A stretch of DNA of 63,023 nt, filler included, from Anaerolineae bacterium (lineage in GTDB: Bacteria; Chloroflexota; Anaerolineae; B4-G1; DUEL01), in assembly GCA_041082215.1 (NCBI GenBank). It is 8 parts of 8 records of this genome, joined end to end, with 100 filler letters (N's around TTAATTAATTAA, not from the genome) between each part and the next. Parts side by side here need not be neighbours in the genome. Positions count along the whole stretch, not along the records: positions 1 to 4,681 come from JBDOIF010000044.1; 7 more parts are not named here. The stretch is one strand, 5' to 3'. The notes beneath the pieces are model-generated. The model did no database searches, had not been told where the DNA came from, and saw only the letters and a list, made by a program, of their open reading frames with translations. This document shows, one piece after another, positions 3,037-48,616 of the stretch. Every line of letters begins with the position of its first letter. Positions within the stretch are counted from its first letter, which is position 1. A program made the position numbers and the translations under genes.

Positions 3037-3189
3037 ACCGCCCTCACCTCACCCCCAGCCCCCTCCCCTCTCCCGCTCGCCTTCGGCGGCAGGCGAGGGG
3101 AGGGGGTGGAATGGGGTTTTGAGGGCGGCGGCGAGGCCGCCGCCCTCAACCCCCCTCTTCACCCCCCTTCTCCCCCCGAAACGGAGGAG
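3037..3189. repeat. Cluster of GC-rich REP-like hairpins; the last is the IS110 target site
   Basis: ccccctcccctc...gaggggaggggg; ttgagggcggcggc-gag-gccgccgccctcaa; ccccccttctcc...ggag, whose partner arm aagggggg lies beyond the IS at 4674-4681. Confidence 0.65.
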
Positions 3190-3332
3190 ATGCTCTCAAA
3201 ATTGTCAAGAGAGCGACCTGGGGGAAGGAAGGGGCAGGGACGGGAAGAGACAACAATACTCCCCCTTCCCTCTCCTCCGAGAGGGTTTGCTTTTGTTTAA
3301 AAATCAGATTCTGACGCAGGGGCGAAGCGGCT

Positions 3333-4355
3333 CTATACCCTTCGCACCGAGACGGTGTGCCGCTGGGGATCAAACTCCTCCCCACTGCAGTACACCGCCC
3401 ACGCCCACACCACGATCTTGCGCGCCGCCGCCACCAGCGCCACCATATGGGACTTCCCCCGCTCCCGTAGCCGGCGGTAAAAGCGGGCCAGCGGGCTATC
3501 CGCTCCCCGCAACCCGCCCCGAGCCGCCGCCACCAGCAGGGAGCGCCAGCGGGTGTCCCCCCGCTTGCTGATGTGCCCCCGGGGCGGCCGAACCCCGCTC
3601 TGGTGAATCCGGGGGTCCAACCCCAGATAGGCCACCAGCCCTTTGGCATCCCGGCGGCCCAACTGCGCCCAGCGCACCACCAGGGCCACCAGCACGTGGA
3701 CCGTCTTGGCTCCCACCCCGGGCACGCTCAACAGACGCCGCCGCAACTCGTCCAGGTTGGGGAAGTCCTGGTACAGGCGGCGGATGTGCCGCTTCGTCCG
3801 CCGGATGAGCCGATTCAGGCACTGGAGGTGTTCCTCCAGGTCCCCGATTTCGGGGGCATCCGGCGAGACCCCCTGGCTCCGGTAGGCGTCCAGGCGGTTC
3901 TGTTCCCGCTGCCGCTCCGCCTCCAGTTCCCGCAGCCGCTCCGCCAGGCGGAGCAGGTGGAATGCCGGCTCGGGCCAGGGCTTCCAGGGGTGGAGGTCCT
4001 TGCGATGCTCGGCCCCGTAGAGGGCCAGCATCTGGCTATCCAGGGGGTCGGTCTTGGCCCGACGCCCCCGCCCCTGCTGCCATTGGCGCACCTGGCGGGG
4101 GTTGGGATAGAGGATGCACTGGCCCTGTTCGGAGAGCCAGTACATCAGGGGGCGTTCGTAGCCCCCACAGGGCTCTATGACCCAGACGACCTCCTCACCC
4201 CGGGCCCGCTGCCGCACCTGCCGGAAGAGCGTATCAAACGCCTCCGGCCGGTTGGGGAAGGAGCCCAGGGGCTGGGGCGAGGCATCCTGGCCCTCCCGAA
4301 AGAGGGCCACGACCAGGGTGTCCCGGCCGCCGTCCACACCGACATAAAGACTCAT
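3333..4355 (-). CDS. IS110-family DEDD transposase/recombinase
   Basis: RuvC-like DEDD residues in VGVDGG, IEPCGGY and AKTDPLD; HhH SVPGVG; C-terminal AYLGLDP..HQSG with the catalytic Ser; SKRG; ALVAAARK; RBS AGGAGG. Confidence 0.95.
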   Translation of the reverse strand: MSLYVGVDGGRDTLVVALFREGQDASPQPLGSFPNRPEAFDTLFRQVRQRARGEEVVWVIEPCGGYERPLMYWLSEQGQCILYPNPRQVRQWQQGRGRRAKTDPLDSQMLALYGAEHRKDLHPWKPWPEPAFHLLRLAERLRELEAERQREQNRLDAYRSQGVSPDAPEIGDLEEHLQCLNRLIRRTKRHIRRLYQDFPNLDELRRRLLSVPGVGAKTVHVLVALVVRWAQLGRRDAKGLVAYLGLDPRIHQSGVRPPRGHISKRGDTRWRSLLVAAARGGLRGADSPLARFYRRLRERGKSHMVALVAAARKIVVWAWAVYCSGEEFDPQRHTVSVRRV

Positions 4356-4660
4356 TGGACACCTCCTGAAAGGGCCCCGGTTCCCGGAGGGGGTGGGTCC
4401 AGGTATGGTCTGGTATGCGGGCTTGGGAGCCCTGGATGCTCTCCATACTTCGGGTCCTGGCCCACGCCTGATCTCGGATGCGGGCTTGGCAGCCCTGGAA
4501 GGGGGGCAGACTTCCGGGAGAAGGGGCCGTCTCCCATCCGGGATAACCGGAAGGGGTACCGGAAAATGTACCGCAGTTTGTTAAAGAGAACAAGGGCCGG
4601 GGCCTATCTCCGCCCGGGAGCTCTGGGCCCTGAAGGGGGGACGGCTTCCCCGGCCCACCC
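4356..4660 (-). ncRNA. Predicted IS110 bridge RNA with one donor-binding loop and up to three target-binding loops
   Basis: Donor guides GAGAGCATC (4435-4443) and ATACCAG (4410-4416) match the element junction GAGAGCAT-CT-GGTAT; target guide CCCCCCTTC occurs at 4632-4640 and 4498-4506, variant TACCCCTTC at 4550-4558; transcript ends are estimates. Confidence 0.8.
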
Positions 4661-4781
4661 CTAATGATACCAGAAGGGGGGNNNNNNNNNNNNNNNNNNN
4701 NNNNNNNNNNNNNNNNNNNNNNNNNTTAATTAATTAANNNNNNNNNNNNNNNNNNNNNNNNNNNNNNNNNNNNNNNNNNNN

Positions 4782-26650: not shown

Positions 26651-26820
26651 GGGACCTCCTGGCCCTCACCCCCACCTCCTGCGGCTTGGCCGCCGGGGGT
26701 GGGGGGTGAGGGCTACCGCGNNNNNNNNNNNNNNNNNNNNNNNNNNNNNNNNNNNNNNNNNNNNTTAATTAATTAANNNNNNNNNNNNNNNNNNNNNNNN
26801 NNNNNNNNNNNNNNNNNNNN

Positions 26821-46723: not shown

Positions 46724-48616
46724 ATGCGTTGTCCCGATTGCGGGAAAGAGGTGCCGGAGCCGCTTTCCCTTTGCCCTCACTGCGGTCTGAACATTGAAGA
46801 GACCCAGCCGATGAAGCGGCGGCGAGGGCGCCGTCGGAGGAATCCAGCGGGCCTGGAAGAGACCATCCCCCTTCCGATCCTCGGAGAGGAGGAAAGGACG
46901 GCCGCCAGGCTTACCCTCTGGCAGCGGGTACGGGTGGTCCTTCTGGCCTTTCTGGCGTTCCTCTGCCTCCTCGTGATTTCCATTTCCCTCGGAGGGTACG
47001 CCGGCTTCCGGCAGGGAGAGCAGGCGCGCTGGGAGCAGCGGCTGGCCGCAGCCGAGGACCATTACCAGCGGGGGCTGGCCCGCCTCGACGCCGGGGAGTA
47101 CGAGCTGGCCATCGCCGAGTTTGAGTACGTCCTCCGTCTGAACCCCAATCATCCGCTCGCCGCTCAGGGGCTGGCCGAGGCCCAGGCACGCCTGGCCGAT
47201 GTCCCAACCCCTACTGCCAGGCCGACCGAGGACATTGCCCAAGAGCTGTATGGGCGGGGGAAGGCGGCCTACGAGGCCCAGGATTGGGAGACTGCAGCCC
47301 GGGCCCTCGGCGAGCTGCGCGGCTTCGCCCCCGACTACAAGACCGAGTCGGTCGAGGAGATGCTCTTCAACAGCCTCTACAACTATGGCATGGCGCTGCT
47401 GGCCCAGGACCGTCTGGAGGAAGGGATTTTCTATCTGGATCAGGCACTCCAGATCCGTCCGCTGGACCCGGAAGCGATGTGGGAGCGAGACTTAGCGCAC
47501 CGCTACCTGACGGCTGTGGGATACTGGGGGGTGGATTGGGAGCGGTGCATCCAGCGGTTTGAGGAACTCTATGCCCTTGCCCCCGCCTATAAAGATGTCC
47601 TGTCGCGGCTGTATCGGGCCCACGTCCAGTACGGTGACCTGTGGGCCGGGAAGGGAGAGATGTGCCCGGCGGTGGAGCAGTATGCCCAGGCGCTGGAGCT
47701 GGTCGCCGACGCTCAGCTTGAGCAGAAGCGGGCGGAGGCGGCGGAGGTCTGTGCTGTGGCTACACCGACCCCCATCTCGCCCATCACCGGCACTCTCTCC
47801 CCCACCAGCACGGTCTATGTGCCGGGGTTCCAGGGGGGCCGGCTGGCCTACCCGGCCTACAACGTCCAGACCGGCCTGTACGATATTTACGCTATCACTG
47901 CCGACGGGCGGCTGACGCGGCTGGTCGGAGGGGCGGACCAGCCGTGCTGGCAGTGGGGGAGCGACCGGCTGGTGTACCGTGACCGCCTCTCTTCCAGCCT
48001 TGCCATGATCCAGCCAGGCGGGCAGCCCGTGATTCTGCGGGTGGACCCGGGGGCCGCCTGGCCCACTCTCTCCCCCGACGGGGGGCGGTATGCCTATGCC
48101 GCTGCGGACTCGTCCGGCGTGTGGCGTATCTACATCGCCGCCACGGACGGCACCGGAGAACCGACGATGCACGCCATCGGCTGGGGGCCGACCTGGGGCC
48201 CCTCCGGACTCCTGGCCTGGACCGGCTGTGAGGCCGATGGGGTGACCTGTGGCATTTTCGTGGATAATCCCGACGACGATCAGCCTCCCACCCGTCTCAC
48301 CGCCAGCAGAAACGATGTCGGGCTTCACTGGGCTCCCGGTGGGGGCCTCCTGGCCTATATGTCGAACCACACTGGCTACTGGAACCTCTATCTCCTCAGC
48401 GTCACCGGCGGGGTACAGGCGCTCACCAACGACGAGACGATTGAGGCGCTGCCTACCTGGGCCCCCGACGGCTCTGCTCTGGCCTTCCTCTCCTACCAGG
48501 GTGGCCGATGGGGCATTTATCTGATGCGGCCGGACGGGGAAGATGTCCACGAGATCGTGGATCTGGGAGCTGAGATGCCTGGCTGGCAGAACCAGCGGCT
48601 GAGCTGGGCACCGTAG
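46724..48616 (+). CDS. Zinc-ribbon / TM / TPR / TolB-like (PD40) beta-propeller protein
   Basis: CPDC..CPHC, one TM helix, TPR repeats, P/T linker, repeated P.WAPDG/SPDG motifs. Confidence 0.8.
   Translation: MRCPDCGKEVPEPLSLCPHCGLNIEETQPMKRRRGRRRRNPAGLEETIPLPILGEEERTAARLTLWQRVRVVLLAFLAFLCLLVISISLGGYAGFRQGEQARWEQRLAAAEDHYQRGLARLDAGEYELAIAEFEYVLRLNPNHPLAAQGLAEAQARLADVPTPTARPTEDIAQELYGRGKAAYEAQDWETAARALGELRGFAPDYKTESVEEMLFNSLYNYGMALLAQDRLEEGIFYLDQALQIRPLDPEAMWERDLAHRYLTAVGYWGVDWERCIQRFEELYALAPAYKDVLSRLYRAHVQYGDLWAGKGEMCPAVEQYAQALELVADAQLEQKRAEAAEVCAVATPTPISPITGTLSPTSTVYVPGFQGGRLAYPAYNVQTGLYDIYAITADGRLTRLVGGADQPCWQWGSDRLVYRDRLSSSLAMIQPGGQPVILRVDPGAAWPTLSPDGGRYAYAAADSSGVWRIYIAATDGTGEPTMHAIGWGPTWGPSGLLAWTGCEADGVTCGIFVDNPDDDQPPTRLTASRNDVGLHWAPGGGLLAYMSNHTGYWNLYLLSVTGGVQALTNDETIEALPTWAPDGSALAFLSYQGGRWGIYLMRPDGEDVHEIVDLGAEMPGWQNQRLSWAP

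Follow-up and report, generated by a model that had tools for sequence, protein, structure and literature searches.

In a window of 63,023 nucleotides from a hot-spring Chloroflexota metagenome-assembled genome (MAG; Anaerolineae bacterium, GCA_041082215.1), we found an intact insertion element of the IS110 family on the minus strand, with its left end at position 4671 and its right end at 3190. The window is the whole stretch of DNA analysed, and it consists of eight contigs joined by seven N44-TTAATTAATTAA-N44 linkers. The left non-coding end of the element appears to encode a bridge RNA in which two target-type loops are combined with a single donor loop, an arrangement common to a small, mostly Chloroflexota-borne subclade; we give this reading a probability of roughly 60%. 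An earlier note on this DNA had proposed four units of one layout, one donor loop and up to three target loops, and we keep its numbering. Units 1 and 3 are of the target type, unit 4 is of the donor type, and unit 2 is a closed hairpin lying in the linker between units 1 and 3. The anatomy of this left end, its conservation, and the covariation of its stems and guides are observed, and all the strings that the earlier note had quoted occur on the minus strand at the positions it gave, including GAAG-N4 ahead of units 1, 3, and 4.

The comparisons below draw on a protein search that scored 8000 candidates and returned 1291 proteins at E ≤ 0.001. Four are close relatives of the recombinase (75 to 93% identity), and the next ones share 45% or less. 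A relative was encoded in 431 of 605 candidate stretches in the genome scan, from which 79 loci were kept, and in 15 of 172 in the metagenome scan. Guide statistics were calculated for 12 families, namely the window element, L001 (with L080), L002, L004, L007, L008, L081, L082, L084, L085 (with L086), L088, and L089. L003, L009, L012, L090, and L091, which are copies or have undefined ends, were left out of the guide statistics and kept for module counts. Sequencing runs were examined as contigs only, and a part of the element that they do not cover proves nothing. Across the subclade, the left end measures approximately 295 to 407 nt.

Unit 1 follows the insertion site

The outer stem of unit 1 pairs GGGCCGGGG (4656-4648) with CCCCGGCCC (4602-4594) and is accompanied by a short base stem. 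Within it lie a left guide (CCCCCCTTC, 4640-4632), an inner hairpin, and a right guide (GGCGGAG, 4614-4608). We aligned 13 unit-1 regions with MAFFT, without fitting the alignment to a structure. The consensus comprised the outer stem, a 4-bp base stem, and the inner hairpin, and both guide strands remained open. Paired cells made up 87.0% of the unit-1 total, compared to 69.4 ± 2.1% in shuffles (none of 500 as high), and both-side changes were present in 31 cells, compared to 11.1 in shuffles; slid controls reached at most 58.6% paired.

The guides of unit 1 match the target of the element that carries them. Averaged over the 12 families, the unit-1 region scored 8.33/9 on the left and 6.0/7 on the right against its own target, compared to 6.06 and 4.69 against foreign targets. 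The left flank was best matched at left-end positions 29 to 35 (12 of 14 rows) and the right flank at positions 54 to 60. Left-flank scores were 9/9 in seven of the 14 rows, 8/9 in four, 7/9 in one, and below 7 in L002 and L080; right-flank scores were 7/7 in four rows, 6/7 in six, 5/7 in two, and lower in L004 and L008. At the window site itself, unit 1 matches 9/9 on the left and 4/5 on the right. When the two target-type modules were compared site by site, with the frame of unit 3 chosen to favor unit 3, unit 1 scored higher at 17 of 18 insertion sites, the remaining site was a tie, and no site favored unit 3.

Guide and target also change together. Between the window element and L001, whose recombinases share 84% amino acid identity, both unit-1 guides are altered along with the target. 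In a strain variant from run X10, four of the 12 listed differences over approximately 800 nt fall in unit 1. Because its guides match the element's own target and change with it, unit 1 can be identified as a putative target-binding loop carrying the specificity. Judged by these matches, it is the main loop that tracks the real insertion site rather than an accessory or extra one.

Three further observations concern the region of unit 1. In L001 (1089-1254), the first ~83 nt of the left end, comprising its start and the whole of unit 1, are present as a tandem duplicate. The tandem unit ends at CT, so that CT precedes each copy of the left-end start, and the arrangement looks like a recombinase-mediated self-insertion followed by a deletion, or like an artefact of MAG assembly. 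The left flank of L080 (1150-1173) is unlike the expected target and looks more like the right end of a related element in shortened form, containing TTGACA and a tail that ends in GCAT-CT; it may be the remnant of a tandem or neighboring element. Finally, record 12 of X10, a 567-nt RNA-library contig, shares window positions 4639-4671 (33 nt, 3 differences), that is, the left-end start and the unit-1 outer stem, and diverges from the window exactly at the start of the left guide. This record may come from a sister element whose unit-1 guide differs.

Unit 3 is a second, conserved target-type module

Unit 3 is closed by a base stem of GUCUG (4511-4507) with CAGGC (4470-4466) and contains the same left guide 9-mer as unit 1 (CCCCCCTTC, here at 4506-4498), an inner hairpin, and the right guide ATCCGAG (4479-4473). 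We built one RNA model from unit 1 alone (R1) and another from unit 3 alone (R2) and scanned 74 sources with both. R1 found unit 1 in 19 of the 74 sources (E ≤ 8e-4), and each of these 19 also gave an R2 match downstream of unit 1, at E ≤ 1.6e-4 in 17 of them and at about 4e-3 in L012 and L091. The models also recognized each other's modules: R2 found unit 1 in 13 of the 19 sources at E ≤ 1 (best 1e-3), and R1 found unit 3 weakly in two (L004, E 0.021; the window, E 0.32). We conclude from these cross-matches that units 1 and 3 are alike and that both are conserved.

The layout of two target-type modules and a donor module was present in all 19 sources, down to approximately 36 to 45% recombinase identity, which removes the earlier suggestion that this particular element had gained extra loops. 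More distant relatives (≤ 34% amino acid identity) gave at most one match per model at E ≤ 1, in 11 sources for R1 and two for R2, and a few matches at chance level occurred elsewhere (for example, window 46882-46977, E 0.1). Under strict filters, R1 was found in three of 151 sampled Chloroflexota genomes and not in the other genomes searched.

For the structure of unit 3, we counted pairs on a structure named by the investigators, in an alignment in which three rows of the window clade and L002 stand one column off register, which lowers the counts. On this basis, 70.8% of unit-3 cells were paired, compared to 63.8 ± 2.4% in shuffles (two of 500 as high), and seven of eight pairs had changes on both sides. 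RNAalifold alone returned no unit-3 consensus pairs on two MAFFT alignments. When the guides were held open, the full module folded in seven of the 12 families, the inner hairpin alone in two, and another fold in three. The base stem was not kept under constrained folding in L001/L080, L008, and L085.

Close to the core, the unit-3 guides vary in step with the unit-1 guides. Within an element, the final 7 nt of the unit-3 left guide agree with unit 1 at 6.25/7, compared to 5.02 between elements, in a comparison with the frame optimized equally for all pairs; the 4 nt before AG in the right guide agree at 2.58/4, compared to 1.52 between elements (p = 1e-4 for each guide, in permutation tests that ignore the relatedness of the families). 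The outer guide bases of unit 3 disagree with unit 1. We also considered the target that each unit predicts in G001, a complete genome with five identical copies of an element, all within one repeat family. Over 29 repeat-bearing loci of this genome, the target predicted from unit 1 recovered the repeat family and that predicted from unit 3 gave only scattered GC-rich matches; this is weak evidence, as the loci were picked by left-flank likeness and the sample is biased toward flanks that resemble unit 1.

One candidate role for unit 3 in the window element was rejected as a general reading. Its right guide is 5/7 like the donor right guide, as a loop for the left junction might be, and the other families do not have this likeness. 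In the window lineage, units 3 and 4 share a near-identical 18-nt inner hairpin (4497-4480 and 4434-4417, minus strand), as the earlier note had observed, together with a GAAGT lead-in, and the two units match each other at 87% over 31 nt. In other families, scaffold motifs are instead common to units 1 and 3. This difference in what is shared suggests that, in the window lineage, the second target-type loop and the donor loop have undergone gene conversion with each other.

Unit 4 and the predicted circle-junction promoter

Unit 4 consists of a left guide (GAGAGCATC, 4443-4435), a right guide (ATACCAG, 4416-4410), and a base stem (4448-4444 with 4407-4403). Its guides fit the donor junction at 9/9 and 7/7, as the earlier note had claimed. 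Among the relatives, the right-donor guide matches 7/7 in 14 of 14 rows and the left-donor guide 7 to 9 of 9, and unit 4 is the predicted donor-binding loop. The match totals given previously for units 4, 1, and 3 (15/15, 14/15, and 11/15) are equal to 9/9 + 7/7, 9/9 + 4/5, and 9/9 + 1/5 once the core T is counted.

The left end begins with GG followed by TATCAT. When the two ends of the element are joined through a CT core, TTGACA from the right end lies 17 nt away. The combination TTGACA-17-TATCAT scored 11/12 in the window, 10 to 11 of 12 in 10 of the 12 families, and 8/12 in the other two by motif scoring, and the -10 box starts at left-end position 3 in every family. A predicted promoter is therefore rebuilt at the circle junction of right and left ends, as described for IS621, and from its position unit 1 would be the first structure of the transcript. 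Directly behind the unit-1 stem lies a T-rich tract, which may be a terminator or attenuator that sets free an RNA consisting of unit 1 only. A T-rich tail after unit 1 is also present in L001 and L085.

Contigs from the RNA libraries X9 and X10, which come from one study, cover the left end including unit 1. We considered whether the end of the X9 contig at 4611 marks an RNA end and rejected it, as this end falls in a strain-variable stretch and is uninformative. The X10 contig extends 337 nt into the flank, which would be either read-through RNA or DNA.

Unit 2 is a closed hairpin

The two strings of unit 2 that the earlier note had read as guides (TACCCCTTC, 4558-4550, and ATGGGAG, 4537-4531) pair with each other, so the proposed series of four units of one layout does not extend to unit 2. 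In run X9, two changes (4552 A to C and 4536 A to G, plus strand) convert the single U.U mismatch of this hairpin to a G-C pair, and the equivalents of the unit-2 segments in L001 form a perfect 7-bp stem. Neither R1 nor R2 matches unit 2. Among relatives, 23 to 142 nt separate units 1 and 3, and this linker contains no module that is conserved. It also scores equally against own and foreign targets (5.83 vs 5.71 and 4.5 vs 4.41); covariation with targets is seen for unit 1 but not for the linker. We conclude that unit 2 is a closed hairpin and not a guide loop. The earlier proposal of extra target loops is borne out insofar as units 1 and 3 are both of the target type, but its unit-2 part fails on the hairpin, the change from U.U to G-C in X9, and the missing target covariation. 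Between units 2 and 3 (4526-4512, minus strand), the window also contains a target-like sequence, GGCCCCTT-CT-CCCGG, with a left-guide match of 7/9 and a CT core.

A possible mechanism and its alternatives

In the scheme that we consider best, transcription would start at a promoter that exists only once the excised circle has joined the right and left ends. The RNA would then present, in order, unit 1, with guides that spell the insertion site; the variable linker, here with the unit-2 hairpin; unit 3; and unit 4, with guides that spell the element's own joined ends. By analogy with IS621, we infer that recombinase dimers would load on a target-type loop and the donor loop; as with transcription and the role of unit 3, this part of the scheme goes beyond the anatomy. 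Left guides would pair with the bottom strand to the left of the CT core and right guides with the top strand to its right, after which the two DNAs would be exchanged at the CT core. Units 1 and 4 would set the insertion site, in repeat-like palindromes, and unit 3 would read the same core-proximal target bases with a shorter match.

For unit 3, we prefer a division of labor, to which we give about one chance in three. Unit 1 would act as a stand-alone, high-specificity "seek"-type RNA made from the circle, and units 3 and 4 would together be a bridge RNA of canonical form, with the donor loop and a low-stringency target loop serving complex assembly and excision. More broadly, and with a similar chance, both target-type loops of the subclade would work within a three-module RNA. 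Either a circle-gated, high-specificity unit 1 would act alongside a low-stringency unit 3, tied in cis to the donor loop for excision and complex assembly, or the two loops would widen the range of repeat variants open to the element; both arrangements would be natural means by which an RNA-guided recombinase separates or multiplies its target specificity.

Several alternatives give the units other roles. Units 1 and 3 could both be working guides, each inserting the element into a different variant of the host repeat that has common core-proximal bases. The unit-3 scaffold is conserved, its guides are not fixed and differ from element to element, and core-proximal bases that covary with unit 1 beside outer bases that differ are as expected for loops directed at variants of one repeat. 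At individual sites, the unit-3 right guide can even exceed that of unit 1: it matches 5/5 compared to 4/5 in L082 and 5/5 compared to 3/5 at G001 site L098, which is a tie overall. However, unit 3 is the better fit at none of the 18 sites, its right guide agrees with no more than 1 to 3 of 5 bases of the real right flank in the window lineage, L084, and L089, and the 29 G001 loci, biased as they are to unit-1-like left flanks, hold no repeated class for the target that unit 3 predicts. We consider this dual-target arrangement unlikely. If unit 3 were instead a functionless, decaying duplicate of the target loop, the working RNA would consist of units 1 and 4. Outer guide bases that do not track targets, base stems not kept in L001/L080, L008, and L085, and the blank result of RNAalifold alone would all be explained. 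A neutral relic, however, is expected to be lost or scrambled over the distance concerned, and the module accompanies unit 1 in all 19 sources down to ~36 to 45% recombinase identity, with both-side changes in seven of eight pairs and core-proximal bases in step with unit 1 (p ~1e-4); decay is an improbable explanation.

Two alternatives are less probable still. One treats unit 1 as an insulator or terminator hairpin, at the DNA or RNA level, at the edge of the element, with a target likeness that is compositional (C/G-rich) and with unit 3 as the true target loop. A strong G+C stem followed by a T-rich tract occurs in the window, L001, and L085, and units 2, 3, and 4 would then resemble the canonical 5' stem-loop, target loop, and donor loop (PMC11208160; here and below, papers are cited for those parts of their text that were available). 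But both unit-1 guides track the real flanks in 12 families whose targets differ widely (right-side examples, matched 5/5, are GAATA, GCGCG, and CTCCG), the internal-loop order of left guide, hairpin, right guide with a terminal AG, then A persists alongside covarying stems, and most relatives have no T-rich tail, which makes this reading very improbable. The other is the four-unit array of the earlier note, with one donor and three target loops. Its unit 2 does offer a C-rich 9-mer that matches the left flank at 7/9 and a G-rich 7-mer ending in AG, but these segments are the two arms of a single hairpin, with G-C in place of the U.U mismatch in X9 and a perfect 7-bp stem at the equivalent segments in L001, within a linker of 23 to 142 nt that lacks a conserved module, a model match, and a target signal. 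We regard the array as hardly credible.

A number of results count against the preferred interpretation. A minimum-energy fold of the single sequence pairs the unit-1 guides partly with each other, the left end as a whole folds no better than shuffles (z = -0.18), and L001 is among the loci without a unit-3 base stem. Matches of unit 3 to the flanks are weak (6.75/9 vs 5.97 for foreign targets and 5.25/7 vs 4.84), at the window site it fits 9/9 on the left and 1/5 on the right, and a search for another partner of its right guide, made on both strands of the two flanks, the start of the left end, and the tail of the right end, gave no signal above the cross-element control. For a division of labor, either another promoter or a terminator behind unit 1 would be needed, and the support is thin. 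A promoter and terminator scan of the integrated element called no promoters and passed over the T-rich tract behind unit 1, most relatives are without such a tail, and an internal sigma-70-like promoter scoring at least 9/12 occurs in only three of the 12 families (L082, L081, and L007), with 7/12 in the window. Strand, start, and level cannot be read from the X9 and X10 contigs, and these libraries may contain DNA. Finally, there are only 1 to 5 known insertion sites per element, and the 12 families are related to one another, which the permutation tests do not take into account.

Bridge recombinases are in development as tools for programmable genome rearrangement, and their RNA has been described as strictly bispecific, with one target and one donor loop. 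If the interpretation proposed here is true, this scaffold has room for a third recombinase-binding module. Such an RNA could indicate how insertion is naturally gated to the circle stage and could show two-site targeting with one RNA. It would also provide a concrete system for asking how excision and insertion stay apart, an open question in the 2026 papers. Should unit 3 prove inert, what remains is a family member that is unusual yet ordinary.

The element and its genomic setting

The recombinase combines a DEDD RuvC-like domain (PF01548) with a Tnp domain (PF02371), the domain combination that defines IS110. Together with the CT cores and the donor guide matches, these two domains agree with the earlier assignment of the left end as an IS110 bridge-RNA region. 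Feature coordinates are collected in Table 1. L001 and L080 have the same element ends as the window element, and CT is present at both boundaries of the window element and likewise in the 12 related families. In G001, two of the five identical copies (L095 and L097) have TT rather than CT at the left junction and CT at the right junction, and the common repeat class of this genome likewise has TT at the place of the left junction. From the TT junctions and the TT of the common repeat class, it seems that the element is able to enter sites whose core differs from its own.

Table 1. Features of the IS110-family element and its surroundings in the window
Feature	Position	Strand	Basis or detail
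Whole IS110-family element	3190..4671	-	CT cores 4673-4672 and 3189-3188; donor guides fit both ends
Known left target flank, CCCCCCTT, 8 nt	4674..4681	-	Contig end at N linker
-10 box TATCAT of predicted promoter forming only across the circle junction	4664..4669	-	Pairs with TTGACA 3208-3203, 17-nt spacer
Unit 1, target-binding-type module	4594..4656	-	Fold, consensus structure, pair counts, target match
T-rich tract TTGTTCTCTTT, directly after unit-1 stem	4583..4593	-	Uncalled in simple terminator scan
Unit 2, plain 9-position hairpin, 5-nt loop, one U.U mismatch (4552 with 4536)	4533..4555	-	Fold; X9 variant
Unit 3, second target-binding-type module	4466..4511	-	Constrained fold, pair counts, R2 match 4464-4515, guide covariation with unit 1
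Unit 4, predicted donor-binding loop	4403..4448	-	9/9 + 7/7 to own right and left ends
Recombinase gene, 340 aa	3333..4355	-	Pfam DEDD_Tnp_IS110 E 7.4e-21; Transposase_20 E 1.7e-14
Right non-coding end	3190..3332	-	-35 box TTGACA 3208-3203; left-donor sequence GAGAGCAT 3197-3190
Right target flank, CCTCC onward	3100..3187	-	G+C-rich repeat-like palindromic region
N44-TTAATTAATTAA-N44 linkers	4682-4781; further at 26721, 53568, 56310, 57827, 59799, 61492		

The contig ends at 4681, ten bases past the left end of the element, and the left flank is therefore known for 8 nt only. Because the contig stops there, beside an N linker, the insertion site is a reconstruction in which the two flanks are joined, and it was never observed as one contiguous sequence. 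Taken together, the two flanks place an arm CCCCCCTTCTCC opposite GGAGAAGGGGGG. The right-flank region gave strong chance matches to hairpin-type Rfam families and occurs in variable versions in DNA runs. Dense G+C-rich palindromic repeats lie beside the element at 3040-3180, with many spurious matches to microRNA-type Rfam families, and are probably the host repeat family that serves as the target. A search with Rfam 15 found nothing inside 4356-4671, even at E ≤ 10, and its strong matches all lay in the flanking repeat hairpins.

Self-comparison showed a single copy of the element within the window. Since the linkers join separate contigs, genes on either side of a linker are not genomic neighbors. 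The public runs that contain the element are hot-spring metagenomes, and its named relatives are Chloroflexota MAGs.

Comparison with known systems

The element is like IS621 and other IS110 elements (PMC11208160, PMC11208158, PMC13626964) in having DEDD/RuvC-like and Tnp domains, CT cores, and a guide RNA in the left end. As in IS621, there is a (here predicted) circle-junction promoter, the targets are repeat-like palindromes (PMC11208160, PMC13626964), and the internal loops carry a left guide equal to the top strand and a complementary right guide, ending at the core. At the sequence level, the element thus has the defining features of an IS110 bridge RNA, except for the canonical count of two internal loops. 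The canonical layout of IS621 is a 5' stem-loop followed by exactly two internal-loop stem-loops, whereas the window element has three guide-type modules: a complete target-type module comes first after its promoter, and another stands ahead of the donor loop.

Our literature search, which did not extend to figures and bioRxiv supplements, turned up no bridge RNA in nature that has a pair of target-binding loops. According to one preprint, departures from the IS621 structure are common among bridge-RNA models (10.64898/2026.10.21.760802), and a three-module form may therefore already be drawn somewhere. In the available text, the nearest printed statement is of one IS110 locus with several predicted donor loops (10.64898/2026.08.14.744561), which likewise has more than one guide loop of one kind. 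In that case, the loops are donor loops connected with partial-circle junctions at one large locus; here, they are of the target type and fixed across a subclade.

Short RNAs with a target-type loop only, approximately 70 to 100 nt long, have been described as the seekRNA of ISEc21/IS1111 (PMC11187229) and as the truncated target-binding-loop RNA of CazIS110-1 (10.1101/2025.10.25.684509). According to the same two sources, such RNAs are abundant in other IS110 elements, and they coexist with a longer RNA that also bears the donor loop. Unit 1 resembles them in its length of ~63 nt, in its place as the first structure after the promoter, and, in the window, in the T-rich tract behind it. The short RNA of those systems is a shorter form of the same target loop, whereas units 1 and 3 are different sequences.

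Target and donor loops on separate RNAs support recombination in trans (Perry et al. 2025, 10.1101/2025.05.14.653916), which makes it mechanistically plausible that a separate unit-1 RNA would act with unit 4. Excision, in turn, has been reported to be independent of target complementarity (10.64898/2026.08.31.748434). Taken with the trans-acting split loops and the abundance of target-only RNAs, this makes a division of labor between units 1 and 3 plausible. The split bridge RNAs of Perry et al. are engineered laboratory constructs with one target loop, whereas the loops described here occur naturally, and those of the target type number two.

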